52,038 nucleotides of DNA, from the NCBI GenBank assembly GCA_017450525.1, contig JAFSTJ010000148.1, positions 1 through 52,038 of the forward strand. The letters run 5' to 3'. The first letter of the stretch is position 1, and every line of letters begins with the position of its first letter. The notes under the pieces were generated by a model. It saw nothing but the letters and a program-made list of their open reading frames with translations. It ran no database searches and was not told the origin of the DNA. This DNA is from Victivallales bacterium. Lineage in GTDB: Bacteria > Verrucomicrobiota > Lentisphaeria > Oligosphaerales > Oligosphaeraceae. Made by a program: the position numbers and the translations under genes. Shown here piece by piece: positions 22,077-43,495 of the stretch.

Positions 22077-22262
22077 TCAAAGCACAGCAAAATCCTTCTT
22101 CTCCGCATTGCGCTGACGCACCAATGTAGCGGCGGATACGATTTTGGGTTTTCCTGACTTGTCACTTACAACAGCCTTGTACCCTAGTTTAGCCTTGCGC
22201 TCCAGCTCCTCGTCTACAGCCTCTTGCAAACAGGCAAGTGCCATTTCCATGTCTTTACTCAT
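22077..22262 (-). CDS. Small charged protein, translationally coupled downstream of the zeta-like ATPase (candidate antitoxin or partner)
   Basis: MSKDMEMALACLQEAVDEELERKAKLGYK... Its ATG lies inside ATGAGTAA, which also carries the upstream gene's TAA stop (8-nt overlap). Confidence 0.5.
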   Translation of the reverse strand: MSKDMEMALACLQEAVDEELERKAKLGYKAVVSDKSGKPKIVSAATLVRQRNAEKKDFAVL

Positions 22263-22845
22263 TTCTTGCAAGCTCCTTCAGGTGTGAAAATACCTGCTGC
22301 TCATAGATGAAATAATCCGTGTCCAACCTTTTCTCGAAAATCGGCCTTATGCGTTCCTGAGAATTGTCAAAGCAGAATGTGCTGTCACAAATCTCCGCAT
22401 AATCGAACAGGTTCTTCACGGTACGCGGGAAGCGTCTGATGATGGTTTCTTCTGGTACATTGTGTCCTCCTTGTTGAACTCGCAGCGCAACACGTTGTGC
22501 GGAGAATTCCGCACTGGGCAGATATAGGAACCATAGAGACACTTGCCAGCCCTGTTTGCGCCACTCCCGTATGCGTGACAGGTACACCCGCCCCGCAAGG
22601 GTTGTCTCAAATGCAAATGTCTCCCTATTGTTGATTTTTTGCTCAAGTTCGCAAAGGAACAGCTTGCTTGCCTGGAGCTGGCCTGCCGTGAAATCCAGCG
22701 GGGAAATGCCCTTTGCAATTTCATCCGCATTGATGAAATTCTTGCACGAGACTATGCTGGGCAGATACTTCATTGCAAAAGTCGTCTTGCCCGAGCCATT
22801 AGGTCCCGCCACAATATGGCAAGTTGGCTGTTCAATCCGCGACAT
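22255..22845 (-). CDS. Zeta-toxin-family / COG4185-type P-loop kinase-like ATPase
   Basis: ORF 22255..22851 starts at a TTG. ATG 22845 gives MSRIEQPTCHIVAGPNGSGKTTFAMKYL (Walker A). Followed by NADEIAKG, FAFETTLAG and GGHNVPEETIIRRF, typical of the zeta/AAA_33-like fold. Confidence 0.75.
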   Translation of the reverse strand: MSRIEQPTCHIVAGPNGSGKTTFAMKYLPSIVSCKNFINADEIAKGISPLDFTAGQLQASKLFLCELEQKINNRETFAFETTLAGRVYLSRIREWRKQGWQVSLWFLYLPSAEFSAQRVALRVQQGGHNVPEETIIRRFPRTVKNLFDYAEICDSTFCFDNSQERIRPIFEKRLDTDYFIYEQQVFSHLKELARNE

Positions 22846-22943
22846 TGTCAAAAAACCTCGTAGAGTATCGCTTAATTTACCCCAAGATGTTCATATTTCA
22901 AGAAATATTCTAAAACCTTAGCGGGAAGTACCTCCCCTGACCA

Positions 22944-27128: not shown

Positions 27129-27563
27129 ATGCAATACAAATTCAAACTTGGAGCAAGGGCATACATATATCCCCTGGTGGCATTGGCGGTCTGCTTCTTC
27201 ATGTACATGCATTCCCGCAAGGCGGGACAGGCATACAGGCAGGAACCCAGGCAAGTGCAGAAATCAAGCCTTCCAGCGGGCACGGAACTTTCCGGCGCGG
27301 TCGATATGGACTTGCCAGCCCTGTATCTCTTTGGCACTGAACAGGATATTGCCTTTGCCGATGAATTGCGTACTGCATTGTCAGGGCGCTGTTCTGTCTT
27401 GCATATCAAGAATGCAGGTGATGATGTTCGTAGCTACTTTGGCGTTTCCCAGTTGCCATGTGCAGTGCTTTTCAATAAGGACAGGGATAAAATAGCGGAT
27501 TTTGCCCCCTTGCCTTCCAAGGATGAGCTGTTGTCTAAAGTGCAGGATTCTCTGGGTAAATAA
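27129..27563 (+). CDS. Membrane-anchored thioredoxin-fold-like protein lacking a CxxC motif
   Basis: ORF 27057..27563 trimmed to ATG 27129, because 27057..27125 is the terminator. N-terminal TM YIYPLVALAVCFFMYM. The C-terminal LPALYLFGTE ... YFGVSQLPCAVLFNKDRDKIADF resembles a thioredoxin-like fold. The functional call is weak. Confidence 0.55.
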   Translation: MQYKFKLGARAYIYPLVALAVCFFMYMHSRKAGQAYRQEPRQVQKSSLPAGTELSGAVDMDLPALYLFGTEQDIAFADELRTALSGRCSVLHIKNAGDDVRSYFGVSQLPCAVLFNKDRDKIADFAPLPSKDELLSKVQDSLGK

Positions 27564-27775
27564 GTGGGGATTCACTTGAGGGCCAACGTTCTTTGAAATG
27601 CCTAGGGACGATATTTACCAGGGCTAAGATTATTAGTACCAGCATTTAACATATAGAACCTTATATATTGAATGGTGGAACCAGGACCGCTTTTCTTCTC
27701 AAGCATCAAAAATTTCCCGTTCCCCCAAGACCATAGAAGTCTCCCAATCCCCCAAGGCGCTAATTAGTGTATTCG

Positions 27776-28564
27776 CTAGCACCAAAGCGTTTCAATAGGC
27801 CTGTTTTGGTGTGCGACCTGCAAGACGATGTCTGGCCTGTCAATGTTCTGGAGGCATTGCTGTGCCCTGTCGAAAGCGATTTTCTCCTTGTTGCACTCTC
27901 TGCTGATGTGTGCTAGGATGACGTTCCTAGTGCAGTCGGAAGCCACGTCGGCAAGAAGCTGTGCGCTGGCTTCGTTGCTGAGGTGCCCCTGCCTGCTCAT
28001 TATTCTCTGCTTGAGATGCCATGGGCGAGATGAAGCGGCCAGCATATCCAGGTCATGGTTGCTTTCCAATACAAGCGCCGTACACTCCCTTAGCTGGTAT
28101 TCCACCATAGAGCTGGCGTAGCCAATGTCGGTTGCTATGGCGATTTTCCTGTTACCGCAGATGAATGAGAATGCTACGGGGTCCGAGGCGTCATGTGGAA
28201 TGGAGAATGGGCAAACTGTGATGGAGCCTATGTCAAATGTCCCGCCTGGCGCGAATGTCGCCATTTGGCGCAGGCGCTCGTCTTTGCAGCGCATTTTCTG
28301 TGCGCATTTCATGGAGGCGAATATAGGAGCGTCAAGAGTTTTTGCACATACGCGCAGGCCCTTTACATGGTCGTCATGCTCATGGGTGACAAGAATCGCG
28401 TTTATGCGCAGTCCTTCCAGGCCAGCCAGTTGCAGGCGTCTTTGGGTTTCCCGTGCGCTGAAGCCAGCGTCCACCATTATTGCCGTGCCGCCGTATTGGA
28501 TAATCGTGCAATTTCCAGAACTGCCACTGCCCAAAACTGTTATGCCAATGTTGTCTTCGCTCAT
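27776..28564 (-). CDS. MBL-fold metallo-hydrolase
   Basis: GITVLGSGSSGN ... VDAGFS ... ILVTHEHDDHVKG (HxHxDH motif) ... LAHIS. The ATG overlaps the lpxB stop (ATGA at 28561..28564). Confidence 0.85.
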   Translation of the reverse strand: MSEDNIGITVLGSGSSGNCTIIQYGGTAIMVDAGFSARETQRRLQLAGLEGLRINAILVTHEHDDHVKGLRVCAKTLDAPIFASMKCAQKMRCKDERLRQMATFAPGGTFDIGSITVCPFSIPHDASDPVAFSFICGNRKIAIATDIGYASSMVEYQLRECTALVLESNHDLDMLAASSRPWHLKQRIMSRQGHLSNEASAQLLADVASDCTRNVILAHISRECNKEKIAFDRAQQCLQNIDRPDIVLQVAHQNRPIETLWC

Positions 28565-29712
28565 AAGTCCCCTGCCCTGCCCTCAAGCAGCTCGATAACG
28601 GCTTCTGCCGCCCTGGCGCTTGCCTTTGTGTCTTCTCCAAGCATTTTCACGCATTTTTCAATGCCCTCCAGGCAAGTCTGTCTTCTGGCCCCGCCTGGAA
28701 GAATGTCCTCAAGTGCGCTCGCAAGTTTGTCTGGCACAGCGTCATATTGAAGTCTTTCCTCATATACTGTCTGCCCTGTAACGAGGTTTGCAATCGTGAT
28801 TGACGGCAGTTTGACCAGTGCCTTTGCCACTTGATATGTGAGCCAGCTGACCTTGTAGGATACAACCAATGGCAAGCCCAGCATGGCGGCTTCCACGGTA
28901 ACTGTTCCGCTGGCGGCAATACCTGCGATTGCCTTTTTCATCTGTTGCCTGGTATCGCCTACGCTTATCTGGAAGCATTTTATTTGTTCTTCATTGAGAT
29001 TGCACTCCTCCAAGAGCCGTTCCGCAAGTTTTCTTGTTTTTTCGCGAGGCAGCGGGATTACGAAATGCAGTTCTTGGTGTTTTTCCTTGAGAAGCAAGGC
29101 TGTTTGCACAAAGGTCTTAAGCAGTGCCTTGAGTTCGTTGGAGCGGCTTCCTGGTAGCAGTAGCACGAGTTTTTCATCGCGCTGGATATCGCTTTTGCGT
29201 AGAGGTGCTAGTATATCCAGCAAGGGATGACCGATGAATTTGACGTCAAGCCCAGTCCCATCATAGACAGCTGGCTCAAACGGGAATATGCAAAGCATTC
29301 TGCGCACGCATTTCGCGATGGTCTTTATCCTGCCTTTCTTCCATGCCCAGACCTGGGGGCTGATGTAGTAAATCACAGGGATACCTGCTTTATGAAGGCG
29401 TTGTGCCAGTCGCAGGTTGAAGCCAGGATAGTCAATCAGAATCACAGCGTCTGGGCGTTCCTCGGCGGCACGCCGTGCCATGTCTTTCAGTAGTCTTATA
29501 AAAAAGAAAATGCTTTTGAGAACCTCGACTATGCCCACCACGCCTAGTTCAGTGGAATCCACCATTATTTCGACGCCTGCTTTGCGCATTGCGGCGCCGC
29601 CCATTCCCTTTATGGTCAGTCCTGGCTGGCGTTCCCAAAGCTCCTTTGCGAGAGCGGCCCCGTACATGTCGCCAGAAGTCTCGCCGCTGATTATCCAGAT
29701 AGTCCTTGACAT
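28561..29712 (-). CDS. lpxB: Lipid-A-disaccharide synthase (GT19)
   Basis: IWIISGETSGDMYGAALAKEL, VILIDYPGFNLRLA, YYISPQVWAWKKGR, LLPGSRSNE, SGTVTVEAAMLGLPLVV: the LpxB pattern along the full length. Confidence 0.9.
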   Translation of the reverse strand: MSRTIWIISGETSGDMYGAALAKELWERQPGLTIKGMGGAAMRKAGVEIMVDSTELGVVGIVEVLKSIFFFIRLLKDMARRAAEERPDAVILIDYPGFNLRLAQRLHKAGIPVIYYISPQVWAWKKGRIKTIAKCVRRMLCIFPFEPAVYDGTGLDVKFIGHPLLDILAPLRKSDIQRDEKLVLLLPGSRSNELKALLKTFVQTALLLKEKHQELHFVIPLPREKTRKLAERLLEECNLNEEQIKCFQISVGDTRQQMKKAIAGIAASGTVTVEAAMLGLPLVVSYKVSWLTYQVAKALVKLPSITIANLVTGQTVYEERLQYDAVPDKLASALEDILPGGARRQTCLEGIEKCVKMLGEDTKASARAAEAVIELLEGRAGDL

Positions 29713-29726
29713 TGTAGGAACACCTG

Positions 29727-30812
29727 TTAGTTGTTTGCCAGCGAGGGAAGCGTGATGTTATTTGTTTTTGCCCAGTCTTTTATCCTTAGGAGAAGTCCCT
29801 GGCTGCTGTTTATGCGCAGATCTCTTCTGGGTATTGTGCAGTCCCTTATTATTTCCTGCAATTCTGGATAATCGTCCAGTTCAGGGATATCCAGAATGCT
29901 TGGTCTGTTGTCTTTTTCAAGGTGGTATTTTGCATCGGTTCGGAATTGTTTCTGCACCAGGCTGCTTTGAGGCTGGTTAAGCGGCTTTGCGCCGAAGAAC
30001 ACGGCAAATGCCACCCCTAGTGCAAACACATCCGTTGCGCCGTTGAGTGGTGCCTTGCATATTTGTTCAGGCGAGAGGTAGCCACCTGTTCCTGTTATTG
30101 CCATAGGCTTGAAGCCGTCTCCCACTGAAACACCGAAGTCAATCAGCTTGACGCGCCCGTTGTTGAGAATGAAGTTTGAGGGCTTTATGTCCAGATGTAT
30201 GAGGCGTTTGCTGTGGAAATAGCATATTGCCTTAACTGCCTGTGCAAACACATCTATCTTGTCCTCTACAGAAAGGCTCTTTGTCAATGCCTTGTCCGCC
30301 AAGTCATGCCCTGTAAGATATTCCATTATCAGATCGTATCCTACTTCCAGGCCGAATTTCTTGACTTTGCGCAGGGCGTAGATATGGACAAGTGGTGTGT
30401 CCTCGGTATCTGTGCAGACAAGTTTTGACACCTCGTATTCATTCATTATGTGCCTGACCTTGGTGCGGTAGGATACTTTTTCAAGCCTCTCCTCCTGGCG
30501 TCTAGTAGCGCTGTCACCGATAATTTTATTCAGAAAGCCTCTGACGCACTTGATGCAGACCTGTTGTCCCTGCAAATCACCAATGTACAGGACGCTTTCC
30601 GCGCCTTTTGCCAATTCGCTTTCTATGGTGTATGGCTTCTCCTGTGCATTGCGTTTGATGGCCGCATGGTCGATTGTCTTCTTTCTGGTTGAGATATATT
30701 GCCTGCCTCCCTTGGGGGCCATTACCTTTGTCTTGTCCTCAAGCTCCACATTTCTTGCAGTCAGGCTCTGCGAGGTCATGCTCGCATCTATTCTTTCAGT
30801 ATCTGTCTTCAT
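29727..30812 (-). CDS. Hanks-type Ser/Thr protein kinase, soluble
   Basis: VCIKCV (VAIK-like Lys), catalytic loop HLDIKPSNFIL, DFGVS, activation segment GTGGYLSPEQ, DVFALGV. The Gly-rich loop is degenerate (LAKGAESV). There are 14 nt to the lpxB start and 15 nt from the upstream stop. Confidence 0.85.
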   Translation of the reverse strand: MKTDTERIDASMTSQSLTARNVELEDKTKVMAPKGGRQYISTRKKTIDHAAIKRNAQEKPYTIESELAKGAESVLYIGDLQGQQVCIKCVRGFLNKIIGDSATRRQEERLEKVSYRTKVRHIMNEYEVSKLVCTDTEDTPLVHIYALRKVKKFGLEVGYDLIMEYLTGHDLADKALTKSLSVEDKIDVFAQAVKAICYFHSKRLIHLDIKPSNFILNNGRVKLIDFGVSVGDGFKPMAITGTGGYLSPEQICKAPLNGATDVFALGVAFAVFFGAKPLNQPQSSLVQKQFRTDAKYHLEKDNRPSILDIPELDDYPELQEIIRDCTIPRRDLRINSSQGLLLRIKDWAKTNNITLPSLANN

Positions 30813-30827
30813 TTCACGAGCCGAGCC

Positions 30828-31928
30828 TTATAGTTTTCCAATACGACGCAATGTTGCGAGCACGTCTTCCTGGACGTCTGTCCGTTTGCTGACGGCCTTC
30901 TTGGCTTCGTCCTCCATGTTTACTGCAAGCTTTGGCATCGGGACATACTGATCAAGAGACTTCTTCACCTTCACCTGCGCGTGATGTTCACTGATCCTGT
31001 TGAAGTCTTCCAGCAATTCATCAGGCTTACGTGAATAAAGCAGCGAAACTGTAATGAACGGCTTCTTCAATGAGGGATTCTCTATCACGCTGTATATAGG
31101 TGTCACGTCCTTGCTGTTGAAATAACGCAGCACGCTGTAGAAGATCGTGGGGTCTCCGCCTTGTGGTATCTCCAGCAGGAACATTGCCTCAATTGCATTG
31201 TCTGGCTCCAGAAGCAATGTGTTCATATTTGCGTCAAGTTGCGCCTCGAAGTCCTTGGAAGGCTCGTAGTCAAAGCTTGTGAAGTAATTGAAATAGGGCT
31301 TTGAAATGTACAGTGCGAAGTCTTCATGGTCGATATGCCCGTCTCTCAGGCGGTACATTTCGTTCTTGTCAGGTATTGCAAGGAACACCTTGAGTGAATC
31401 TATCAGCATTGTGTTGAACACATCTTCCGCTATTTCTTTCTCGAACTTTTCCTTGTTGCTGAAAAGCACTATGTTTCCAGTGTTTCCGCTGTCAATTGCC
31501 TCAGTAAGCGGCCCTGTAAGGAAGTCGATGGTATTGTCCACGAATTCCGATGATTCAAGCCCTGCGTATGGAAGAACGATGCCGAAAAATGTCTTGTCAG
31601 ATGTGCTAATGTTTTCCGCTTTTGCAAGATCGTTGAGTATCCCTGATGTTATACCGTTTCCAGTACCACCGCCTGTAGAGCTGAACACCTTGTTGCCTCG
31701 TATGGCGGCCTGAAGCTCTCTCTTGATTGATTCGTATGCGTCATGCCCAATTTCAGGGTTCTTCCTGGAGCCGCGGAATTGACCATGCTCCGCCCTTACG
31801 GTGGCTAATATTCTCTCCGAGCCTCCCTGGACCTTGTTAAGCTCCACCTGGGACACGTTCACCAGAATTGCCTCATTGTCGAGTTCCACGGCTAATTTGC
31901 AGCCTGCACCGCCGATGCCAATTGTCAT
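30828..31928 (-). CDS. Divergent FtsZ/tubulin-superfamily GTPase (TubZ/FtsZ-like)
   Basis: In order: MTIGIGGAGCK (T1 G-box), GSRKNPEIGHDA (cf. FtsZ GAGxNPxxG), SSTGGGTGNGITSG (tubulin signature GGGTG[ST]G), VLFSNKEKF (cf. FtsZ IPND region), GHIDHEDF (T7-like acid pair). The ATG overlaps the upstream stop (ATGA, 31925..31928). Confidence 0.8.
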   Translation of the reverse strand: MTIGIGGAGCKLAVELDNEAILVNVSQVELNKVQGGSERILATVRAEHGQFRGSRKNPEIGHDAYESIKRELQAAIRGNKVFSSTGGGTGNGITSGILNDLAKAENISTSDKTFFGIVLPYAGLESSEFVDNTIDFLTGPLTEAIDSGNTGNIVLFSNKEKFEKEIAEDVFNTMLIDSLKVFLAIPDKNEMYRLRDGHIDHEDFALYISKPYFNYFTSFDYEPSKDFEAQLDANMNTLLLEPDNAIEAMFLLEIPQGGDPTIFYSVLRYFNSKDVTPIYSVIENPSLKKPFITVSLLYSRKPDELLEDFNRISEHHAQVKVKKSLDQYVPMPKLAVNMEDEAKKAVSKRTDVQEDVLATLRRIGKL

Positions 31929-32284
31929 TGCAAGTTCTCCAGATATGCCGATGCCTGTGGCTTGAATAGGTCTCTTTTGACCATCATTTCTAGCGCACGG
32001 GCACCATAGCGGGTTATGTATATGTTCTTTCTGTTATGCTCGTCCCTAATGTCAATGAAACACAATGTCGAAAGGGCAAAGACGGATGAGACTGCGGTCT
32101 GCTTTGTGCGTGTCAGCCCTGCCTGTTTCATGTCGTCAAAGGCATTGGTTATGTTGTATTTATAACCGCGCCCTTCACTCTGCGTAGCCCAATACAGGAT
32201 CATGAAATGACTTTCCTGTAGCCGTAGCACCTGTTCCTCAAACAGAGGTCCAAGTTCATCTACCATGGCGACGTTCTTTTTCAT
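31925..32284 (-). CDS. Small winged-helix DNA-binding protein (TubR-like position)
   Basis: 119 aa. Helix-turn-helix-like GLTRTKQTAVSSVFALSTLCFI is followed by a wing-like RDEHNRKNIYITRYG. AGGA RBS upstream of ATG 32284. Fold assignment is by eye only. Confidence 0.6.
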   Translation of the reverse strand: MKKNVAMVDELGPLFEEQVLRLQESHFMILYWATQSEGRGYKYNITNAFDDMKQAGLTRTKQTAVSSVFALSTLCFIDIRDEHNRKNIYITRYGARALEMMVKRDLFKPQASAYLENLQ

Positions 32285-32415
32285 TCGTGTTCCTAATTAT
32301 TTACCTGCGTACGCGTGTTTCATATATATTTAATCAAAAAATTTGCCGTAAGATAACCCAATCGCCGCATTTTGCAAATTCACCTTGGCTTCTACTCCTC
32401 CTCGCATGATAATAT

Positions 32416-32460
32416 TACACTATACTACACTACACTATAATACATTATATTACATTATAG
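32416..32460. promoter_or_regulatory. 10-bp-phased iteron-like array in the divergent promoter region
   Basis: tacactatac tacactacac (tataa) tacattatat tacattatag. It lies about 130 nt upstream of the wHTH gene start, in a very AT-rich stretch. The 8-bp palindrome gcgtacgc sits at about 32307..32314. Confidence 0.55.
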
Positions 32461-32629
32461 TTTAATATAGTAATGGCAGTGTCGGCAGGTATGGAGCCTA
32501 AATGGGCAATAGCATATTTAGTTAGAAATAAGAAATGTTAATGAAATTATAAAATATTATACAAGAAAATCATATTAATTACGTTATATAATAGATTGAG
32601 AAAGGGAATAATACAATAAAAACATAATA

Positions 32630-34099
32630 GTGAAAGAGATAGGAAAGCAAAAGATGGAAAATCTAGTAGAGAAATACAAGATATACAGGTATGCGGCGAA
32701 AATAGCAGGTGAAAGAAAAGCAAAGGAATTGAATACCGTGATGGAGAATATGGCACTGGACTTTGATTTCAATGAAAGGTTTATCCAGACAATATGGAAT
32801 GAACAAAAGTTGGAAGGGGAATTAACGACAGAAGAGGGAAGTATTATAAAGGTATTATCGAATGGAATATGGAACAATGGGGCTGGGCCAGACTTCCATA
32901 ATGCATCGATGTTGATAGACGGGAAATTTTGCAGTGGAGATGTGGAGATTCATAAAAAAAGAAGTGATTGGTACAAGCACGGACACGAAGGAGATGAACG
33001 CTACGGAAATGTGATATTGCATGTGGTATGGGAGAATGACATGCAGCAGGTGCCTGGAAAAATGCCGATTGTTGTAATAAGCAAATATGTGAACGAGGAT
33101 TGGAGGAGGCTGCTTTGGGAACTTGAGGAATCTAGATATTCATACGCAGATAAAATAGGAAAAGGAGAATGTGTATTGAGATGGGCGATGACAGAGGATG
33201 GTAAGGTTAGAAGGTTGTTAGAAGCGGCTGGAATTGCCAGATACGGTTCAAAAGTCAGTAATATGAGGCGTGAGATTGAAAAGAAGGGAGAAGAGAGGGC
33301 ATTGTTAGAGGGGATATTTGATGTATTGGGATATAAGAACAATAGGAAACAATTTCATCAAATAGCTGAGGCATTGGAAATTGGCGTGTTACAGTCAAGT
33401 GAAATAGGAAATCTAGAAAAAGAAGCATTGATATTTGGAACAGCAAATATGATACCAGATACAACAAGGTGCAGGATAAATGAGCAAATGGCAGAATATG
33501 TAGATTTACTATGGGATGCATGGTGGAGAATAGGGCAGAGGAGAAAACTTGTTATTGAGTGGGATAATACAGAAAGCAGACCATATAACAGGCCGTGGAG
33601 GCGTTTGGTAGCAGGAATTGAGTTGTTGAAGATTACAGATTGGATGCCAAATACGTGGGTAAGAAGTCTAGCGGCGAGTTGTGCTTCGTCACAGGAATTG
33701 TTTAAGGGAATAAATGCATTAAACAACAAAAACACGATATTCAGGGATTATACAAGTTTTGAGAGCATTATCAAACCTGGAGCAGATTTGCTGGGGAGGG
33801 AAAGAATTGCGGACTTGGCCTGCAATGTATTGCTGCCATTCATTACGGCAATCGGCGAGATTGAGAGAAACGAGAAATATATGGATTTGGGAAGGAAAAC
33901 ATATATGTCAATGTCGTCAAGACAGGGAAACAGGCTGACTAAAGAGGCTAGTGCCAGGTTTTTGACGCCGCCTAGCAGAATCAAGGACCTGGTGAAAAGC
34001 ACATGTCAGCAACAGGGATTGTTGGACATATACAAGAACTTCTGTCTTGCGTTAGACAATAATTGCACATTGTGCCCATTCTCAGGCAATAATGGTTAA
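32630..34099 (+). CDS. DUF2851-family protein
   Basis: FIQTIWNEQKL ... GAGPDFHNASMLIDGKFCSGDVEIHKKRSDWYKHGHEGDERYGNVILHVVWEND matches the DUF2851 core as I remember it. The start is uncertain (GTG 32630, or ATG 32654, 32741 or 32750). Confidence 0.7.
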   Translation: MKEIGKQKMENLVEKYKIYRYAAKIAGERKAKELNTVMENMALDFDFNERFIQTIWNEQKLEGELTTEEGSIIKVLSNGIWNNGAGPDFHNASMLIDGKFCSGDVEIHKKRSDWYKHGHEGDERYGNVILHVVWENDMQQVPGKMPIVVISKYVNEDWRRLLWELEESRYSYADKIGKGECVLRWAMTEDGKVRRLLEAAGIARYGSKVSNMRREIEKKGEERALLEGIFDVLGYKNNRKQFHQIAEALEIGVLQSSEIGNLEKEALIFGTANMIPDTTRCRINEQMAEYVDLLWDAWWRIGQRRKLVIEWDNTESRPYNRPWRRLVAGIELLKITDWMPNTWVRSLAASCASSQELFKGINALNNKNTIFRDYTSFESIIKPGADLLGRERIADLACNVLLPFITAIGEIERNEKYMDLGRKTYMSMSSRQGNRLTKEASARFLTPPSRIKDLVKSTCQQQGLLDIYKNFCLALDNNCTLCPFSGNNG

Positions 34100-34116
34100 T
34101 AAAGGAGAAATAGGAG

Positions 34117-35175
34117 ATGGCTAATATCGAAGATAGTAAAAAAAGACGACCAGTTGATATTGCATCAAAGATGTTCTTTGGACAGCCAATTGTGGCAGCG
34201 GATGTAATAAATATATGTATTCGAGATCAAATCGGAAAAGGGAAAATACTTCCTGAATATTTAACAAGACTTGATCCGGCACACTATAATGTGCTGGTTG
34301 AGAAAGACGGTAAAATTAAAAGTGACAATCGGTACAGGGACCTGTTGTTCAAATGCAAGATTCCAGAAAAGGAGGGGAAATATATATATGTAGGGATTGA
34401 ATTGCAGACGAAAAAGGACAAGAACATGCTTGAGAGATGCTGGGAATATGACTTGAGATTTTATATAGAGCAGAAACATGACATAGCAGGGCGAGGTAGT
34501 TATGAAAGAATCCCTATTGTGAATATTGTATTATATCTTGGATATGACAAATGGAATGAGAAAATGTCATTGTTCGAGAAGCCATTTAATTTTCCAAAGG
34601 GAGTAATGTCTATATGTCCGAATTACTTCATCAATGTGTTCAACATGGTGGATTTGGCAAGAAAATCTGAGGTGGCTGATAGCGAAGAGTTGCGGGTTGT
34701 GCTAAATTGCTATCGCTTTATAAAAAACAAGAGAAAGTTGGAGACAATTATAAAGACAGGTATGCCCCTCGGCGTTTACAGCCTAAATGCCGCTATTCTC
34801 ATTAATGTATGCCTGAGACTGAAACTTAAGTTAAAAGTAGAAAATGGGAGAGTGGACATGTGCAAGGCAATGGACGATTGGAGAAAAGAGATTGAGAGAA
34901 AGGCCGAGAAGAGGGGTGAGAAGAGGGGTGAGAAGAGGGGTGAGAAGAGGGGAGTGATTATTGGCAAAGAAATTGGCAAAGAAATTGGCAAGGAAATTGG
35001 TAAGGCAATGGCTGATAGAAGGGCAGAGAAGCGAGGCAAGGAAAATACAATTATCAGCATTGTCCAGAGAATGCTTATTGGTGGGGTTTCTATCCGTGAT
35101 ATAGCAAAATACACTGGCTCGTCAAGCGCGAAAGTTAGAGCAATTGCTGCAGCGCAGAATCTTGCCCTGAATTGA
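34117..35175 (+). CDS. Rpn-family recombination-promoting nuclease / putative transposase (PD-(D/E)xK, YhgA-like) with internal tandem repeats
   Basis: N-terminal DIASKMFFGQP ... RYRDLLFKC ... YIYVGIELQTKKDKNMLERCWEY follows the YhgA/Transposase_31 pattern. In-frame repeats (GEKR)x4 and (GKEI)x4 are present, and the C-terminus has an HTH-like GVSIRDIAKYTGSSSAKVRAI. Confidence 0.7.
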   Translation: MANIEDSKKRRPVDIASKMFFGQPIVAADVINICIRDQIGKGKILPEYLTRLDPAHYNVLVEKDGKIKSDNRYRDLLFKCKIPEKEGKYIYVGIELQTKKDKNMLERCWEYDLRFYIEQKHDIAGRGSYERIPIVNIVLYLGYDKWNEKMSLFEKPFNFPKGVMSICPNYFINVFNMVDLARKSEVADSEELRVVLNCYRFIKNKRKLETIIKTGMPLGVYSLNAAILINVCLRLKLKLKVENGRVDMCKAMDDWRKEIERKAEKRGEKRGEKRGEKRGVIIGKEIGKEIGKEIGKAMADRRAEKRGKENTIISIVQRMLIGGVSIRDIAKYTGSSSAKVRAIAAAQNLALN

Positions 35176-35639: not shown

Positions 35640-36461
35640 TTACAACAGTTTCTTTTGCATCCACTGACGGGGGGATTCGTTAATATTACGCTTGAAGAAT
35701 CGTGAGAAGACGTATTCGCTGCTGAAGTTCATTAGCGTGGCGATTTCCTTTGAGGAGCGACCGTTTTGAAGCAATTCCAGGCAGCGTCCTGTTATCACTC
35801 GGTCTATAAGTTGTTTTGGGGTGATGCCAGTGCGTTCCTTGAAATGGCGTGTGAAGCATTCCCTGCTTTCGCCACATATTGATGCAAGTTCACTGACGGA
35901 TGTCTGTGCATCCCCTTGTTTTACGAGATAATCTGTGAGGTGCATGTATTGCTTCAGGGACAAAGGTCCCTGGAATGCCTCCTCGTCGTATGATGACAAA
36001 AGCCTAGCCATGATGGAGAAGGCAAGGCCGCCTACTTTAGCCGCTGCGATGCAATTATTGTCCGTGGAGGAAAACAGTTCAAGCAATTCCTGGAATTCAG
36101 GCTGCTGGGGCAACTCAAGCATGTGATTGCAGGCTGAAAATAACTCCACTCCAGGAAAAATGTAAAGGTTGGTGTGGACGGAAAGGAACTGCAACTCCTC
36201 GTCAAGCAGGAAAATCACAGGCAGGTATGCGGGCACAAAATAGAAACGGCCTGGCACCATTGTGTAACTCTTGAAGTGGTCGGCAATATAATTGTCCTCG
36301 CCATTTGGATTTTGCAAGGGAAAAAACAGGCGGTTTACAGGCATGGCCTTGTATTCTTGCTTTCGGTAAGGATAGGTGCCTTTTGCGTAATGCCTAACAT
36401 AAAATCTTGAATTATTGATGATTTTAAGCAGGTCATCCCTGTCTATGTGTGTTATTCCCAT
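35640..36461 (-). CDS. AraC-family transcriptional regulator
   Basis: The C-terminal double HTH (SELASICGESRECFTRHFKERTGITPKQLI ... IATLMNFSSEYVFSRFFKRNINESPRQW) is characteristic. It is divergent from the glycyl-radical enzyme gene. Confidence 0.88.
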   Translation of the reverse strand: MGITHIDRDDLLKIINNSRFYVRHYAKGTYPYRKQEYKAMPVNRLFFPLQNPNGEDNYIADHFKSYTMVPGRFYFVPAYLPVIFLLDEELQFLSVHTNLYIFPGVELFSACNHMLELPQQPEFQELLELFSSTDNNCIAAAKVGGLAFSIMARLLSSYDEEAFQGPLSLKQYMHLTDYLVKQGDAQTSVSELASICGESRECFTRHFKERTGITPKQLIDRVITGRCLELLQNGRSSKEIATLMNFSSEYVFSRFFKRNINESPRQWMQKKLL

Positions 36462-36606: not shown

Positions 36607-38664
36607 ATGGAATACGCCAGTTTTGATGAAATAAGGCCTCGTCTGGAAAAGCAATACGAGAATGCAGAGTATTGCATGGAAGGCGCCTGGGACGAGCAGA
36701 GGATGCGCATGGAATGGACCGCATGGCAGGCGGACAATCCAAATGAATACCGCGGTTTGCAGCGTGCAATGTTGACGAAGATGCTGCTGGAGCATGCGCC
36801 AATCGCCATTGAGAAGTGGAATCCTTTTCCTGGCAAGTTCAAGTGCTACAACCTTCCAATGGAGGATGTTAATGCACATTACAAGACGGCGGATGAAGTT
36901 GTGCCTGGCGTGGAACCTTACAAGATGGATTTCCAAAGAGGATTGGGATGGATGGTGGACAAAAGCCACGCAGCCCCAGACTGGAAAAGGGTGCTCGAAC
37001 TTGGCATTCCTGGTATGCTTGAGCAGGTTGCTGGGCGGGATACGCCATTCTATAAAGCGCTTGCCATTAGCCTGGAGGCGGTGAAGTGCTTCTGCCATCG
37101 TGTTGCTCGCCTCAATGATAACCCCGTGTATGATGAGATAGCGGAGCACGCGCCAAAGACCTTGCACGAGGCATTTGCCCTTGCATTTGTCCTCCACGAT
37201 GTGATAGAGATATGCCAGTGTGAGCAGATGCGCACCATGGGACGCTTTGATTCACTTTACATTGACTTCTACAGGAATGATCTGGCGGCTGGACGCTTGA
37301 CCAGAGATAGCGCAAAGGAACTCATAAAGTTCTTTTGGATTGTGTTTTATGCACGTTTCCAGGGGCTGCGCTTCGGCAAGAACTTCTGCTTTGGCCCCAA
37401 GTTCAACGAACTGTCGTACCTCGCCATGGAGGCGTATTATGAGATGAACATACAGGACCCCAAACTGTCTATTCTTGTTACGGAGGACATGCCACAGGAC
37501 TTCGCGGAATTGTATGCAAAATGCATCCGCGATGGGCGCACGGCGATAGTATCCCTGAACTATGAAGTGATTGTGGAAGGGCTTGTAAAGGATGGGCGCA
37601 CCAAGGAGGATGCGGAGAATTTCGTGCCCATAGGCTGCTACGAGCCTGCCGTGGCGGGCAAGGAGATGTCTTGCTCTGGGGCCACGCATTTGTTTATGCC
37701 CGTTATACTGCTGGCACTCCTTGAAGAAGACAGGCAATACGCCTCCTTTGAAGAACTTAAGAACGACTATCTTAGGAAAATCGGAGATACCATAAAACTA
37801 CTGCAGGAGAAACAGATACCCTGCGACAAGGTGTGGAGCCACATAAATCCAGTTCCGCTGCTGTCCGCTACATTTACGTCCTGTGTGGAAAGGGGACTGG
37901 ACGTATCGGAGGCGGGCGCAGTCTATAATTCCACAGGCACAGTTGTTTCCTACACCGCCGATGCCGTTGATTCACTGGCTGCAATACGTTATCTGGTGTT
38001 CGAGAAAAAACTTTGTACACTGGATGAATTGAGGGCAATCCTTGCAGACAACTGGCAGGGGCATGAACGTCTCAGGCGAATTGCCTTGACCAAGCCGCCT
38101 AAATGGGGTAACAACGACCAGAGGGCAGATGCCCTGGCTGTGGAGATAGCGGATTTTGCCTCTAAACGGCTGAAGGAGACCGCCAATGGACGCGGAGGGC
38201 ATTTCTTCCCGTCCATCTATGGACAGAGGGTGGTGGAGAATGGCCGCGAAATCGCCGCTCTGCCATCGGGACGATTGTCTGGCGAGCCTATGTCAAAGAA
38301 TATGGACGCTGTAATCGGAATGGACAGGCACGGCATAACCGGGCTCATGGAATCCGTGCTAAAAATTGACATGACTGCCTTCCCCTGCGGCACATGCCTG
38401 GATTTGATGCTGCATCCCACCTCGGTCAAGGGTAGTGAAGGCGTTCCGCTTCTGGTGTCCATAATTCGGAGATTCATTGCCCAAGGCGGCAGCGGAATAC
38501 AGTTCAATATATTCGATGCGAATGTGCTGAAGGATGCCCAGAAGCACCCTGAGAAGTACGAGAATCTTCAGGTGCGCGTCTGCGGCTGGAATGTGAAATT
38601 CAATGATTTGGAACCTGATGCCCAGGAGACTTTCATACGCCAGGCGGAAGAATTGATTAGTTGA
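36607..38664 (+). CDS. Glycyl radical enzyme (PFL-like fold, eliminase/dehydratase-type active-site loop), unusually short at 685 aa
   Basis: C-terminal glycyl-radical motif LQVRVCGWNVKFNDL. A Cys loop VPIGCYEPAVAG (GC-x-E type) is present. AAGGAGGT RBS at 36594..36600. Confidence 0.85.
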   Translation: MEYASFDEIRPRLEKQYENAEYCMEGAWDEQRMRMEWTAWQADNPNEYRGLQRAMLTKMLLEHAPIAIEKWNPFPGKFKCYNLPMEDVNAHYKTADEVVPGVEPYKMDFQRGLGWMVDKSHAAPDWKRVLELGIPGMLEQVAGRDTPFYKALAISLEAVKCFCHRVARLNDNPVYDEIAEHAPKTLHEAFALAFVLHDVIEICQCEQMRTMGRFDSLYIDFYRNDLAAGRLTRDSAKELIKFFWIVFYARFQGLRFGKNFCFGPKFNELSYLAMEAYYEMNIQDPKLSILVTEDMPQDFAELYAKCIRDGRTAIVSLNYEVIVEGLVKDGRTKEDAENFVPIGCYEPAVAGKEMSCSGATHLFMPVILLALLEEDRQYASFEELKNDYLRKIGDTIKLLQEKQIPCDKVWSHINPVPLLSATFTSCVERGLDVSEAGAVYNSTGTVVSYTADAVDSLAAIRYLVFEKKLCTLDELRAILADNWQGHERLRRIALTKPPKWGNNDQRADALAVEIADFASKRLKETANGRGGHFFPSIYGQRVVENGREIAALPSGRLSGEPMSKNMDAVIGMDRHGITGLMESVLKIDMTAFPCGTCLDLMLHPTSVKGSEGVPLLVSIIRRFIAQGGSGIQFNIFDANVLKDAQKHPEKYENLQVRVCGWNVKFNDLEPDAQETFIRQAEELIS

Positions 38665-38667
38665 ACA

Positions 38668-39570
38668 ATGAAAACTGCACCATACATTGACATAAAGCGC
38701 TTTGCAGTTCATGACGGGCCAGGAATCAGGACGACGCTGTTCCTGAAGGGCTGTAGCCTGCGCTGCATCTGGTGTCACAATCCAGAGAGTCGTGAATTGC
38801 GTCCTGAACTGGCTTTCCGCGAGATGAAATGCGCCCTTTGCGGAGAGTGCGCAAAAGTCTGCCACTACCACGTCATTGAGACTGGAAAGCATTTATTCAA
38901 GCGCGAGGAAAGCCAAGGCTGTGGCAGATGCGAGCAGGCATGTTTGTTTGGCGCACTGGAGTTGTATGGCAAGCAGATTTCCGTGGAGGAGGCAGCCAGC
39001 GTCCTGCTGGAGGACCGCAACTTCTACGGCGATGATGGAGGCATTACGATTTCGGGTGGTGAGCCATTGATGCACAGCAAGTTTTGCTCAGAGTTGTTTG
39101 CGCGTATTAAAGAAGAGGGCATCCACACCGCCTGCGACACTTGTGGAAACGTGCCCTGGAGCGCATTCGAGGAAGTGCTGCCAAACTGCGATGTGTTCCT
39201 CTACGACTTCAAATGCGCGAATACGGAACTACACAAGCGCCTGACTGGCTCGGGAAATGAACTCATACTTGAAAATCTTGAACGACTTTCACACACGGGC
39301 AAGGCGATAGAGATACGCATGGTAATGGTGCCGCAGCACAACATGGATATGGAAAATATCAGAAATGCAGCTACATTCCTTATGAGGCTTGACAACATTA
39401 CCGCTGTCAGGCTTCTTGCATACCATTCCATGGCAAGATCTAAATTCAAAGCAATCGGACATAAGGATACCATGCCTGACGTGCCACCTCCAACAGAACA
39501 AGAAATGGAGCAGGTCGAAAGGGTATTGGCGTCATACGGCTTGAATGTCATCAACACCTTGAGGAATTAA
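38668..39570 (+). CDS. Glycyl-radical enzyme activating protein (radical SAM)
   Basis: CSLRCIWCHNPES (Cx3Cx2C) plus two ferredoxin-like Cys clusters (CALCGECAKVCH, CGRCEQACLFGA). ITISGGEPL is also present. It starts 3 nt after the GRE stop. Confidence 0.9.
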   Translation: MKTAPYIDIKRFAVHDGPGIRTTLFLKGCSLRCIWCHNPESRELRPELAFREMKCALCGECAKVCHYHVIETGKHLFKREESQGCGRCEQACLFGALELYGKQISVEEAASVLLEDRNFYGDDGGITISGGEPLMHSKFCSELFARIKEEGIHTACDTCGNVPWSAFEEVLPNCDVFLYDFKCANTELHKRLTGSGNELILENLERLSHTGKAIEIRMVMVPQHNMDMENIRNAATFLMRLDNITAVRLLAYHSMARSKFKAIGHKDTMPDVPPPTEQEMEQVERVLASYGLNVINTLRN

Positions 39571-40543: not shown

Positions 40544-43495
40544 ATGAACAGATTAGTTATTGGCATTGCATTTCTTTTGTCTGGCGTTCTGCTGGCACAG
40601 AACTTAATCAAGGATCCTGAGTTCGACACGGGTAAATTCGTTGACTGCCAGTTCACCTCCAACAAGGGGACGATGAAAGCAGAGATTGTCACGGAGGACG
40701 GCAACTGGAACAAGTGCCTCCGTATAGAGAAGATCGCCCAGCATGTTGACCCAAAGACAGGGAAGAAAGGCGACCATATAGCTGTCACATTCGGCAATGA
40801 CGGAAAGGATGGAGGCAAGCATCCTGGCTTCACGGTAAAGCCCCACACGGTATATGAATTCCAGTTTGAACTTAAAGGAAACGTGGTGCCCATCATACGA
40901 CATGTTGAATGGGATGGGGATGACTACTGGAAGAACATGGGAGATACGCCTAAGGCAAACATACCGAAGAAGCCCGTCGTCTCCGATGAATGGCAAATTG
41001 TGAAGGGCACGTTCAGAATCGGTCCCAAGGCTAAATATGCTGGATTGCAGCTGTTTATTTGGGGAGTCGAAAAATGGAATAACGTAAAGCCCGTCGGCTC
41101 ATATTTCATGGTGGACAAGGTACAGATACGCCAGCAGGCGGCTCTGCTGCCTGAAGCTAAGACGGACAATGGCAGCGTCAAGGAGAAGCAAGTCGATACT
41201 CCATGCATAATTCCTGGAGAAACCTACAATGGCTTCACGAAACTCAGGACAAAGGATCCAGCTCAGGCTGACACCAGTTACACCTACCAGTTCAAAGACG
41301 GAAAAGTGCTGCTCACGGTCCGCTGCAATGAGCCATTCATGGACAAGTTGAAGGCCAACATCAAGGACGATAACGGCAGCGTGTGGAAGGACGACTGCGT
41401 GGAGATTTTCTTCAATTCCAAAGTCAGCGGAAGAAAACTGAACCAGTTTGTGGTAAGCGCGGGCGGCGGGCGCTGGATGGGAAGAGGCAACGCGGAGAAT
41501 GTCGCGGAATATTCCTCCTGGAAGGCTAGCGTCGCACAGGAGAAGGACGCCTGGATTATCAATGCGGAAATACCACTCAGTTTATTGGGATGGAATGAGC
41601 CTCCCAAGGCAGACGAGGCATTGCGCGTGCTTATCGGGCGCAACCGCACACCTGTAAAAGAAACCACCTCCTCCACATTCACGAAGGACGGCTTCCACGA
41701 AATCGATGACTGGGCGTATCTCTTCCCCAATGGCGCAAAGGTCTGGGGCGAAGCGCAGAAACCGCTTCTTCTTGCCAAGGCAAAGAAGTTTGACAAGATT
41801 GTCAAGGAAATCAACGAATGGAAACCCTCTGACAAGCCAGCCGAGAATCTGGCGAAAGTCAATTACTTCAAGGACAAGATGCTTGCGGAGGAACTGGCAG
41901 GACGCAAGTTCGTGCTTACGCATAACCCCATCACTACCGATACGCAGATTCCATTTTTGCCAGAAACGCTGGCGAACCCGCCTGATTCCATCTCCGACAG
42001 GGCGGCTGGAAACGAATTGCACTGCATGGCTCTGGCAATCACAAACTTGACCGAGCAGGTGGAGGAATACAGAATTGTCCTTAGCGCAATAAACGAGGAA
42101 ACCTCCGAGAAATGGGTGCTGGAGACCAAGGACGGCAAAAGTTATCCACCTGAAAAAATCACCATGTTCAGAGCGATTCGCGTTAAGGACGGCGAAGAAG
42201 CCTCCCATGGCCGCCGTTATGATCCGCTGGTGCCAATGGACGTGTCACAGACAGTTGTGGTGCCGCCTCGTGAATCGGCGCCCATATTCGTTCAGTTCGA
42301 CACCACGGATGTCGCGCCTGGGTTGTACCAGGGTGTTGTGCGCGTGATTCCATTAGGCGAAGAGGGAACTCTTCAAAAGAAGAATCCAAGTTATAGGGAT
42401 ATACCCTTCTCCTTTGAAGTGCTGCCCTTCCAACTTTCCAAGAAGCAGGGTGTTCGCCACTTCATGTACCAGGAGGCACGCAACAAGGAGGACTTCAAGA
42501 TAATGATTGATGCTGGCGTGAATGTATTCCAGATCAATACCTGGACGGCCTCCTTCAAGTTCGCCGATGATGGTTCCATTATCGCAAAGGACACCAAAAA
42601 TATGGAAGCGAAAATCAAGGACTACATGGCGTGGGCGAAGGAATATGGCGTGGAGGACAGGCTTGAGATATGCCTCCACTATGCCGTCTATTATCATTAT
42701 ATTGAGCGCTTCACCAATAACAGGTTCAAGCCATTCACACCAGCCTGGGAAAAGGCCTGGGTGAATTGCATATTGGAGTTGGACGCGGTCCGCGAGAAGT
42801 GCGGATTCCCCAACGACAAGTGGATATATGAAATCGAGGACGAGCCAAAGGAGTCCCGTTTCCCAATATTTACCAGAGCCTTGGAACTTGCCTGCAAGGC
42901 AAAGCCAAGCCTCAGGTTCATGATTACACTTGGCGCACATGAAGTATCCTGCGAAACACTTATGAAGTTGGTGCCGTACGTACATGAGTGGTGCTTCTGG
43001 AACATACGCTTCTTCCTGCAGAAAGAAATGAAACCCCTGCTTGCCAGGTTGCGCAAGGAGAACAAGATAATCTCCACATACACCTGCAACACTAGTATGC
43101 GCTCCAGCCTGCAACTCTACTACCGTCAAGTGCCATGGACCGTGCCATATTTCAATCTGGATTCACACAACTTTTACGAGCATTCCTCCCACAAGTACAG
43201 GACCCGCTCATGGCGCGAGGCTACTTGCGGCGAGGTCGTCATATACTCCAATGGCCATCCTGTCACGACAATCCGCAACGAATGCCTGAAGTCAGGCCTC
43301 ATTGACCTGAAATACCTTGCCGTGCTGAAACAATGCCAGGAGAAGGTGGGCAAGGACAGCGAACTTGGCAAGAAAATCGGCACTTTCATTGAAAAGACAA
43401 CTTATGCCGTAATTATGAATCCTCCTGAAGATCCTCTTCATTTCGAGAAGATTCGCAAGGAAATGATAAATCTTATTCTGGAGGCACAGAAATGA
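40544..43495 (+). CDS. Large secreted CBM4/9-like + CBM9-like multidomain protein with an uncharacterised, possibly catalytic, C-terminal half
   Basis: Signal peptide MNRLVIGIAFLLSGVLLAQ. NLIKDPEFDTG ... YFMVDKVQI resembles a CBM_4_9-type sandwich. DDCVEIFFNS ... WIINAEIPLSLLGW ... LRVLIGRN resembles CBM9 and is paralogous to the segment in 9456..13346. Confidence 0.8.
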   Translation: MNRLVIGIAFLLSGVLLAQNLIKDPEFDTGKFVDCQFTSNKGTMKAEIVTEDGNWNKCLRIEKIAQHVDPKTGKKGDHIAVTFGNDGKDGGKHPGFTVKPHTVYEFQFELKGNVVPIIRHVEWDGDDYWKNMGDTPKANIPKKPVVSDEWQIVKGTFRIGPKAKYAGLQLFIWGVEKWNNVKPVGSYFMVDKVQIRQQAALLPEAKTDNGSVKEKQVDTPCIIPGETYNGFTKLRTKDPAQADTSYTYQFKDGKVLLTVRCNEPFMDKLKANIKDDNGSVWKDDCVEIFFNSKVSGRKLNQFVVSAGGGRWMGRGNAENVAEYSSWKASVAQEKDAWIINAEIPLSLLGWNEPPKADEALRVLIGRNRTPVKETTSSTFTKDGFHEIDDWAYLFPNGAKVWGEAQKPLLLAKAKKFDKIVKEINEWKPSDKPAENLAKVNYFKDKMLAEELAGRKFVLTHNPITTDTQIPFLPETLANPPDSISDRAAGNELHCMALAITNLTEQVEEYRIVLSAINEETSEKWVLETKDGKSYPPEKITMFRAIRVKDGEEASHGRRYDPLVPMDVSQTVVVPPRESAPIFVQFDTTDVAPGLYQGVVRVIPLGEEGTLQKKNPSYRDIPFSFEVLPFQLSKKQGVRHFMYQEARNKEDFKIMIDAGVNVFQINTWTASFKFADDGSIIAKDTKNMEAKIKDYMAWAKEYGVEDRLEICLHYAVYYHYIERFTNNRFKPFTPAWEKAWVNCILELDAVREKCGFPNDKWIYEIEDEPKESRFPIFTRALELACKAKPSLRFMITLGAHEVSCETLMKLVPYVHEWCFWNIRFFLQKEMKPLLARLRKENKIISTYTCNTSMRSSLQLYYRQVPWTVPYFNLDSHNFYEHSSHKYRTRSWREATCGEVVIYSNGHPVTTIRNECLKSGLIDLKYLAVLKQCQEKVGKDSELGKKIGTFIEKTTYAVIMNPPEDPLHFEKIRKEMINLILEAQK

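Follow-up and report, generated by a model that had tools for sequence, protein, structure and literature searches.

A chromosomal TubZRC-like cassette with a TubZ-like GTPase in Lentisphaerota

To our knowledge, type III (TubZRC) segregation has been described for a small number of Bacillus plasmids and Clostridium phages and nowhere else, and the accepted mechanisms for bacterial chromosomes are ParABS, SMC and entropic ones. This report concerns an open reading frame (ORF) for a TubZ-like GTPase of the tubulin/FtsZ superfamily in a Victivallales bacterium, encoded within a stretch of 52,038 nucleotides of contig JAFSTJ010000148.1 that is referred to below as the window. The GTPase is probably the motor of a chromosomal, vertically inherited DNA-partition or positioning cassette of the TubZRC type, a function proposed by analogy with the described systems. 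Sequence comparison and structure prediction together establish an anatomy of three parts, namely the GTPase, a translationally coupled TubR-like protein and split arrays of TAGTR repeats. In the literature searched, neither TubZ nor TubR was found to be connected with Lentisphaerae or with a system on a chromosome, and a 2023 survey of the tubulin family makes no mention of a Lentisphaerota cassette. What appears to be new is a TubZRC-type module in a chromosomal, phylum-wide and kinase-linked form.

In described TubZRC systems the centromere always lies upstream of tubR, is split into short direct-repeat blocks and covers the promoter (PMC6009700), and helix H11 of TubZ leads into an unstructured tail through which the protein binds TubRC (PMC5322520). 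The present cassette is likened to these systems because the position of its repeats, their division into blocks, their overlap with a predicted promoter and the predicted H11-like helix with its tail all match this published definition. The closest characterized relative in sequence is TubZ of the Clostridium botulinum prophage c-st (PDB entries 3V3T and 4XCQ), reached through a bridging set of proteins described below (hhalign probability 99.6%, then E = 1.4 × 10−75). The c-st system shares with the cassette a TubZ of about 360 residues with the tubulin/FtsZ fold, H11 and a flexible tail, a tubR gene directly upstream of tubZ, and a centromere upstream of tubR in split blocks over the promoter, with iterons of only 4–5 bp (PMC6009700). 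It is prophage-borne, whereas the cassette is chromosomal, phylum-wide and apparently vertically inherited, and its iterons are TTGAC and A/TGAA in place of TAGTR. The cassette further differs in that TubY is missing, that a gene for a Ser/Thr kinase follows in about 60% of loci, that the terminal peptide is highly conserved and that the GTPase has no direct hmmscan match to the TubZ_C families. The Bacillus plasmid systems (pBtoxis, 2XKA and 3M8E; pBM400, 4ASN; pXO1 RepX, 4EI7) share the order tubC–tubR–tubZ, and they supply both the best structural and the top profile match of the small upstream protein (pBM400 TubR) and a profile match of the GTPase (RepX). Their TubZ proteins are larger (∼420–480 residues) and only 13% identical to the GTPase in structural alignments, and they are plasmid-borne with 12-bp iterons, in contrast to the 5-bp iterons and chromosomal location of the cassette.

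The features of the locus, all on the minus strand except where no strand is given, are as follows; the coordinates of the four peptide motifs were checked by translation.

31925–32284, minus strand: TubR-like winged helix-turn-helix protein, 119 residues, its stop codon overlapping the GTPase start as ATGA
30828–31928, minus strand: TubZ-like tubulin/FtsZ-superfamily GTPase gene, ATG-to-stop ORF, 366 residues
31896–31922, minus strand: T1 loop, IGIGGAGCK, residues 3–11 of the GTPase
31653–31676, minus strand: T4 tubulin signature, TGGGTGNG, within residues 83–103
31317–31343, minus strand: T7 loop and start of H8, DGHIDHEDF, residues 196–204
30831–30872, minus strand: conserved C-terminal peptide, QEDVLATLRRIGKL, residues 353–366, after a flexible linker
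32405–32478, minus strand: tubC-like cis element, an AT-rich array of TAGTR/YACTA units with 5-bp periodicity
32419–32436: core of this repeat array, TATAGTGTAGTGTAGTATAGTGTA, about 150 nt upstream of the ATG of the small gene
29727–30812, minus strand: cytoplasmic Ser/Thr protein kinase, 361 residues (Pfam Pkinase, E = 5.5 × 10−25)

The TubR-like partner, the upstream repeats and the GTPase fold

A cassette, rather than a stand-alone unusual FtsZ, is indicated by the co-translated TubR-like gene and by the conserved iterons in front of it. A small gene is adjacent to, co-oriented with and directly upstream of the GTPase gene in 127 of 127 informative loci among 144 distinct loci (a first count gave 88 of 88, and the addition of metagenome contigs then brought the set to 144). 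Its product has 110–119 residues across loci and no Pfam or NCBIfam match, and its divergence co-varies with that of the GTPase (Pearson 0.77). The AlphaFold2 model of this protein, with a predicted local distance difference test score (pLDDT) of 93.6, has the H-H-H-H-β-β-H topology of a winged helix. Among its Foldseek matches the best geometry was given by TubR of Bacillus megaterium pBM400 (4asn_A; template-modelling score normalized by the target, TMt, 0.80, root-mean-square deviation 2.7 Å, 21% identity), with TubR of Bacillus thuringiensis (3m8e and 3m9a, TMt 0.68–0.73) lying among generic MarR and ArsR proteins. A profile of the small-protein family searched against 177,635 distinct PDB sequences also placed TubR 4asn at the top, as a full-length match (residues 9–102) with a borderline E value of 0.043. 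The recognition helix and the wing are the DNA-contacting elements of TubR; in the small protein, two invariant motifs are predicted to fall on these elements, TRTKQ (residues 58–62) at the N-terminal end of the recognition helix and NRxN (residues 84–87) on the wing. The PHROGs families gave nothing meaningful for either the GTPase or the small protein. The initial annotation, sound as regards the departure of the GTPase from ordinary FtsZ, passes over the TubR-like gene and the iterons.

Within the window, six matches to TGTAGTATAGT (with at most two mismatches) cluster at 32419–32471; over the whole window there are 12 matches against 4.9 expected, a number reached in none of 100 shuffles. 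TAGTR-type repeat arrays precede the small gene in 98 of 107 loci, and the octamer AGTATAGT is present in 57 of 82 upstream regions compared with one of 77 downstream controls. Runs of three or more AGT or ACT triplets that keep a 5-nt register have a density of 3.3 per kb in the regions upstream of the small gene and of 0.029 per kb elsewhere in the loci, an enrichment of more than 100-fold. Of 132 runs, about 125 are found no more than 750 nt upstream of the small gene, and almost all of the cases counted as elsewhere are 400–750 nt upstream. The TAGTR motif recurs in unrelated genomes, even at a guanine-plus-cytosine (GC) content of 60–68%. In GC-rich homologous loci the typical proximal block follows about 17 nt after a TTGACA and overlaps the −10 region, and one or more distal blocks, often inverted and of up to 10–13 units, are found 150–750 nt upstream. 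The proximal block is predicted to overlap a TTGACA-N17-TAnnnT promoter; this prediction is drawn from the GC-rich homologous loci, since a consensus promoter and terminator scan of positions 27500–32700 of the window gave counts at chance level. An Rfam scan of the window found no RNA element in the leader, the sole family at gathering score being a tRNA gene at 4267–4338 on the minus strand.

This arrangement of repeats bears on whether the cassette could instead be a domesticated or decaying remnant of the partition system of an integrated plasmid or prophage, with a filament that has lost its tie to DNA movement and has, for example, a cytoskeletal or shape function or a kinase-controlled stress or developmental function, and with iterons that serve as operators only. 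The location of the proximal block over the promoter is consistent with plain autoregulation, the closest relatives of the GTPase are phage-borne TubZ-like proteins, and the third gene is a kinase and not TubY in about 60% of loci. The distal arrays, however, exceed in unit number and distance what a simple operator would need, essentially every lineage retains the three parts together, the catalytic loops and the tail are strongly constrained, which is not the pattern of decay, and the surroundings of the cassette contain no conserved mobile-element genes. A remnant is therefore considered distinctly unlikely.

The AlphaFold2 model of the GTPase has a mean pLDDT of 86 and a predicted template-modelling score of 0.79, with residues 1–300 almost all above 90, and was divided as follows.

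Residues 1–165: predicted N-terminal Rossmann-like GTPase domain
Residues 168–191: predicted long helix H7
Residues 193–300: predicted C-terminal domain
Residues 302–326: predicted extra H11-like helix of 25 residues
Residues 327–352: predicted low-confidence linker (pLDDT 48–57)
Residues 353–366: terminal peptide, with a predicted short terminal helix at 355–362

Residues 193–300 (pLDDT above 90) form the usual β-sheet/helix C-terminal domain. In a Foldseek search of the PDB the model aligned over 316–325 columns with FtsZ structures (E values of 10−15 to 10−16) and matched CetZ and TubZ equally well (10−14 to 10−16 overall). Among the latter were c-st TubZ (3v3t, TMt 0.75) and B. thuringiensis TubZ (2xka, template-modelling score normalized by the query, TMq, 0.67–0.70), TubZ structures including 4xcq giving E values of about 10−14. 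In the model, the C-terminal half thus consists of a standard superfamily domain, after which come an H11 helix like that of TubZ and a tail, the combination of helix and flexible tail known from TubZ being present here as a prediction. This half of the protein had initially been described as unrecognizable; simple sequence searches indeed find no match for it, but the predicted structure and the profiles of c-st-type TubZ do align (295 columns).

Translation reproduced the ORF and all five motifs read from it in the initial annotation, in the same order, including residues 51–67 (FRGSRKNPEIGHDAYES), residues 153–162 (IVLFSNKEKF) and residues 195–204 (RDGHIDHEDF). The motifs are not a chance resemblance: in an alignment of 36 homologues sharing only 56–71% identity, the invariant residues include Gly4, Gly6, Gly7 and Gly9 of T1, Gly86–Gly90 and Gly92 of T4 (the GGGTG signature), Asn158, and Asp200, Glu202, Asp203 and Phe204 of T7. 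The GHIDxED segment is aligned by hhalign on the GNxDxx[DE] T7 loop of c-st-type TubZ. The retention of both acidic residues of T7, noted at the outset, is upheld by this invariance and alignment, and head-to-tail polymerization dependent on GTP would be a reasonable expectation for a protein in which T1, T4 and both T7 acidic residues are conserved.

The same annotation saw no FtsA/ZipA-binding C-terminal peptide pattern, but a conserved terminal peptide does exist: the linker is followed by a near-invariant terminal peptide of 12 residues, D-[VI]-L-x-x-L-[KR]-R-[LI]-G-K-[LI], in which Leu360, Arg362 and Lys365 are invariant and Asp355, Leu357, Gly364 and Leu366 are at least 90% conserved. 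It resembles the FtsZ C-terminal peptide, the consensus of which is D-I-P-x-F-L-R-K, without the proline and the aromatic residue. About 320 homologues of the GTPase were collected; the best 120 are all full length at about 365 residues and 56–94% identical, and those among them with names are each a `hypothetical protein' from metagenome-assembled genomes (MAGs) of Lentisphaeria or Victivallales. A C-terminal-domain loop of one Victivallales homologue (P0071, locus L034; alignment columns ∼226–252) has taken up a highly charged insertion of 27 residues, KPSKYEIDEDLKGEEREKAIEKRNAKA, and homologue P0056 has a four-residue insertion further on; these surface loops tolerate extra residues and could serve as a guide for tagging. 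The 10.8-kb metagenome contig JAEEGL010595055.1 (locus L090) carries a copy of the TubZ-like gene that is 99% identical to that of the window, and the two probably derive from the same species.

Relationship to FtsZ and TubZ families

The Pfam Tubulin model (PF00091) scored 27.3 bits on the window GTPase, below the cut-off of 33 and over residues 20–104 only, and two other family representatives fell just above the cut-off (34.6 and 35.2 bits). Pfam hmmscan at E values of up to 1 gave no match of the window GTPase to FtsZ_C (PF12327) or to Tubulin_2 (PF13809), for which one relative scored 21.8 bits against a cut-off of 27, and no match to Tubulin_C was present in the scan. The NCBIfam ftsZ equivalog TIGR00065 scored 14 bits against a cut-off of 295.2. 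A phmmer search of the PDB with the GTPase matched FtsZ chains over residues 3–103 only (E ≃ 0.01–0.1), and the profile of the GTPase family matched FtsZ N-termini together with the TubZ-like RepX of pXO1, which was second best and had the longest coverage (residues 15–210). The absence of FtsZ_C, the TIGR00065 score and the lack of division and cell-wall (dcw) genes nearby all indicate that the GTPase is not an ordinary FtsZ. Its initial assignment to the tubulin/FtsZ superfamily but outside ordinary FtsZ is thus sustained, as is the statement that it has no dcw-cluster neighbourhood, which is true of the window and of the other loci examined. The profile comparison proposed at that stage had a divided outcome, in that PF00091 remained below its cut-off and neither FtsZ_C nor TubZ_C was matched, whereas hhalign linked the family to the clade of c-st-type TubZ proteins.

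When 1.84 billion representative proteins were searched exhaustively by HMMER with the profile of the family, the matches comprised only three full-length clusters of the family at 50% identity, plus fragments, followed by a gap in E value from 10−115 to about 2.5 × 10−6. The 20 next matches of more than 250 residues, referred to here as outsiders, all contain Pfam Tubulin, with TubZ_C_3 in seven, TubZ-like_C in two and FtsZ_C in one, and 13 of them show weak Tubulin_2 matches. They sit in phage-like contigs, some of about 220 kb and labelled Caudoviricetes. In hhalign the GTPase family aligns with these outsiders at 99.6% probability (E = 1.2 × 10−23) over 295 columns spanning residues 2–320, which takes in the C-terminal domain and the extra helix, and the outsider profile in turn matches c-st TubZ (3V3T). 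The alignment with Escherichia coli FtsZ covers 91 N-terminal columns at 79%, the comparator here being a single sequence and hence weaker than a profile. By these sequence comparisons the GTPase family is an isolated clade with mobile-element TubZ proteins as its nearest relatives. The most FtsZ-like of the outsiders (P0179 and P0183) were considered as a route to the FtsZ of the Planctomycetes–Verrucomicrobia–Chlamydiae (PVC) bacteria and rejected, their composition being more archaeal or candidate-phyla-radiation (CPR)-like than PVC-like.

The isolation of the clade also bears on the proposal that the protein is simply a diverged ordinary FtsZ, or a paralogue of the FtsZl-1, FtsZl-2 or CetZ type, with no special context. 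FtsZ structures do head the Foldseek results by E value, the best single-sequence matches in the PDB are FtsZ chains, and the GTPase shares with bacterial FtsZ the two-domain fold, the order and spacing of T1, T4, the asparagine in S6 and the T7 acidic residues, and a plan of globular core, linker and conserved terminal peptide. It nevertheless lies below the cut-off of every FtsZ model, has no FtsZ_C and no dcw context, has an extra H11-like helix, and is accompanied by an obligate gene for a DNA-binding partner, conserved and TubR-like, and by iterons. The gap in E value separates the family from all others, and CetZ structures match the model no better than those of FtsZ or TubZ. The FtsZl-1 and FtsZl-2 proteins (Pfam Tubulin_2) are said to have been described with membrane-remodelling operons by Makarova and Koonin in 2010; the window protein has no Tubulin_2 match, and the neighbourhoods of the cassette in the loci examined differ from such operons. 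A diverged FtsZ or FtsZ paralogue is accordingly judged highly improbable, and like the partition remnant it fits the data less well than a TubZRC-like cassette. Phage tubulins such as PhuZ, ϕKZ TubZ and the `CetZ-like' proteins of jumbo phages share the tubulin/FtsZ fold and a C-terminal tail, and Foldseek matches of the GTPase to phage tubulins in BFVD have E values of 10−10 to 10−16. PhuZ, however, centres phage nuclei and is not known to use a TubR/tubC adaptor, whereas the GTPase is a cellular protein, encoded on the chromosome and with a winged-helix protein as its partner.

Chromosomal setting and the division alternative

A scan of GTDB contigs at one genome per species found 107 stretches encoding the GTPase family, of which 80 loci were kept, and the family was found only in Lentisphaerota and in some Kiritimatiellota chromosomes. 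Among the kept loci are one on a 5.7-Mb contig from a cultured organism, Oligosphaera ethanolica DSM 24202, one on a complete Victivallales chromosome of 3.08 Mb, others in Lentisphaerales MAGs, and a coherent clade of MAGs labelled Kiritimatiellales, Pontiellaceae or Tichowtungia. The window itself is ordinary chromosome, with leuA-like, suf, oxaloacetate decarboxylase, lpxB, rho, coaE and glycyl-radical enzyme genes, and the neighbours of the GTPase gene encode the kinase, LpxB, an MBL-fold protein and a DUF2851 protein, with no dcw genes. The flanking genes vary between lineages, and the clade structure of the cassette tracks taxonomy. A mobile-element origin was considered and rejected, as no relatives were found by tblastn in phages (50,697 records) or plasmids (72,556 records) or by a scan of IMG/VR. 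Given the housekeeping context, the clades that follow taxonomy, the co-varying distances of the two proteins and the lack of relatives in phages, plasmids and IMG/VR, the cassette looks ancestral and vertically inherited rather than recently inserted.

The gene for the Ser/Thr kinase, an enzyme of eukaryote type, begins 15 nt beyond the stop codon of the GTPase gene, and the two probably share an operon. In 62 of 105 loci, which are concentrated in a single major subclade, an orthologue (42–58% identity) is the next gene downstream on the same strand. It is the sole recurrent partner among the downstream genes across loci, with no other conserved gene and no TubY analogue. Kinase domains fused to Tubulin_2 `FtsZ-like' proteins have been reported in Planctomycetes (PMC9871819), and there may be a recurring association of kinases with tubulins in PVC bacteria.

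Alternatively, the GTPase could be the division tubulin of Lentisphaerota, of TubZ or extremely diverged FtsZ type, taking over or sharing the Z-ring, with its peptide binding FtsA and the winged-helix protein acting as an autoregulator only. The family is single-copy, phylum-wide and strongly conserved (56–94% identity), as would be expected of an essential housekeeping gene, and the D-[VI]-L-x-x-L-[KR]-R portion of the terminal peptide resembles that of FtsZ. The literature on canonical FtsZ in Lentisphaerae is moreover contradictory. According to the main text of one study Lentisphaera araneosa has FtsZ, and its Supplementary Table 1 lists FtsZ as NA and FtsA as present at 7 × 10−86 in this organism (PMC5147048). 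The only nearby entry in that table, gi 149140528 with E = 0.006, falls by its position in the LpoB column. Only Verrucomicrobia and Omnitrophica are named elsewhere as FtsZ-bearing PVC groups (PMC5945725), a reviewer in 2008 mentioned a `non-functional' ftsZ homologue in Lentisphaera, and dcw genes are reported to be conserved in Lentisphaerota (PMC12283558). Queries with FtsZ (E. coli and CPR), Soj and Spo0J (Bacillus subtilis) gave no tblastn match in 1.42 Mb of loci, a search that covers only about 10 kb around each cassette and is therefore uninformative.

Several observations stand against a role as the division tubulin. The main text of PMC5147048 and PMC12283558 place FtsZ and dcw genes in Lentisphaerae, and the cassette is also found in the MAG clade labelled Kiritimatiellales, in a phylum whose cultured member encodes FtsZ (PMC5148204). 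Neither ftsA nor ftsQ nor mur genes are ever adjacent to the GTPase gene in the 144 loci, and the nearest relatives of the protein are TubZ proteins of phages. The invariant coupled DNA-binding partner and the split centromere-like iterons are also foreign to the known division FtsZ proteins; we know of none with such a partner and such arrays. A division tubulin is therefore regarded as unlikely, although less so than the remnant or the FtsZ paralogue discussed above.

Other features of the window are recorded here as observations in their own right. A low-GC segment at 32630–35175 (0.40–0.43), with a strongly positive GC skew of +0.2 to +0.29, directly abuts the tubC-like region and encodes the DUF2851 protein (489 residues) and a YhgA-like PD-(D/E)XK `Transposase_31' protein (352 residues) with peptide repeats in tandem (four of EKRG and three of IGKE). 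The segment looks like an inserted island, and DUF2851 was not found beside the cassette in any other locus. On the minus strand, a stretch with a GC content of 0.44 (20862–22851) encodes a Zeta-toxin/AAA_33-like protein (198 residues, 22255–22851) beside ORFs of 159 and 164 residues without Pfam match, and may be a toxin–antitoxin or other accessory module. The Rho termination factor (656 residues, 45407–47377) has a long N-terminal extension, its RNA-binding domain beginning at residue 287. An ORF of 983 residues (40544–43495) with no Pfam match at E values of up to 10−4 is flanked by genes for a DUF1559/N-methyl pilin-like protein and a GH130 phosphorylase. A glycyl-radical enzyme (PFL-like and Gly_radical domains) with a radical-SAM activase is encoded at 36607–39570, downstream of a divergent AraC-type regulator (35640–36461).

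Proposed function and implications

If the GTPase is the motor of a TubZRC-like cassette, the winged-helix protein would coat the iteron arrays, both repressing the operon and forming a nucleoprotein complex. The GTPase would polymerize head-to-tail with GTP, the T7 loop of one subunit activating hydrolysis in the next, and its C-terminal peptide would attach the filament to the DNA-bound complex. Treadmilling filaments could then move or position the chromosomal locus that bears the cassette, the cargo being this chromosome region and not a plasmid or phage, and in about 60% of lineages the co-encoded Ser/Thr kinase would probably tune assembly or DNA binding by phosphorylation.

A number of points weigh against this proposal. 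Each functional step is argued by analogy. The GTPase has no direct hmmscan match to the TubZ_C families, its Foldseek results do not separate TubZ from FtsZ or CetZ, and its terminal peptide (D-V-L-x-x-L-R-R) is FtsZ-like and could instead bind FtsA or the membrane. The sequence link between the small protein and TubR is weak (the E value of 0.043 given above), winged-helix folds are common, and this protein could be an autorepressor only. No TubY homologue accompanies the cassette, and a single short centromere would be unusual for a chromosome of 3–6 Mb. A shift in GC skew at about 32 kb was considered as an origin or terminus cue and discarded, since it coincides with the low-GC island and with gene orientation. 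Finally, the cassette is not carried on a low-copy plasmid or prophage, one of the properties that define the type III systems known so far, and it is this departure that makes the case interesting.

A more far-reaching form of the proposal, which is advanced tentatively and with appreciably less confidence than the partition or positioning role itself, is that Lentisphaerota and some Kiritimatiellota chromosomes possess a working tubulin-based centromere, in which a TubZ-like cytomotive filament moves the TubR-like protein at its tubC-like chromosomal site, and which would amount to a `mitotic' apparatus, vertically inherited and kinase-regulated, maybe accompanied by a degenerate FtsZ and feeding into division. 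A chromosomal role for the cassette would bear on the long-standing question of cell division in those PVC bacteria whose FtsZ is reduced or doubtful. The locus offers a testable list of parts, namely the protein pair, the terminal peptide and the 5-bp iteron, all of which are present in the cultured O. ethanolica DSM 24202. If the proposal is true, the cassette would provide a first candidate for a bacterial system in which a tubulin positions chromosomal DNA.

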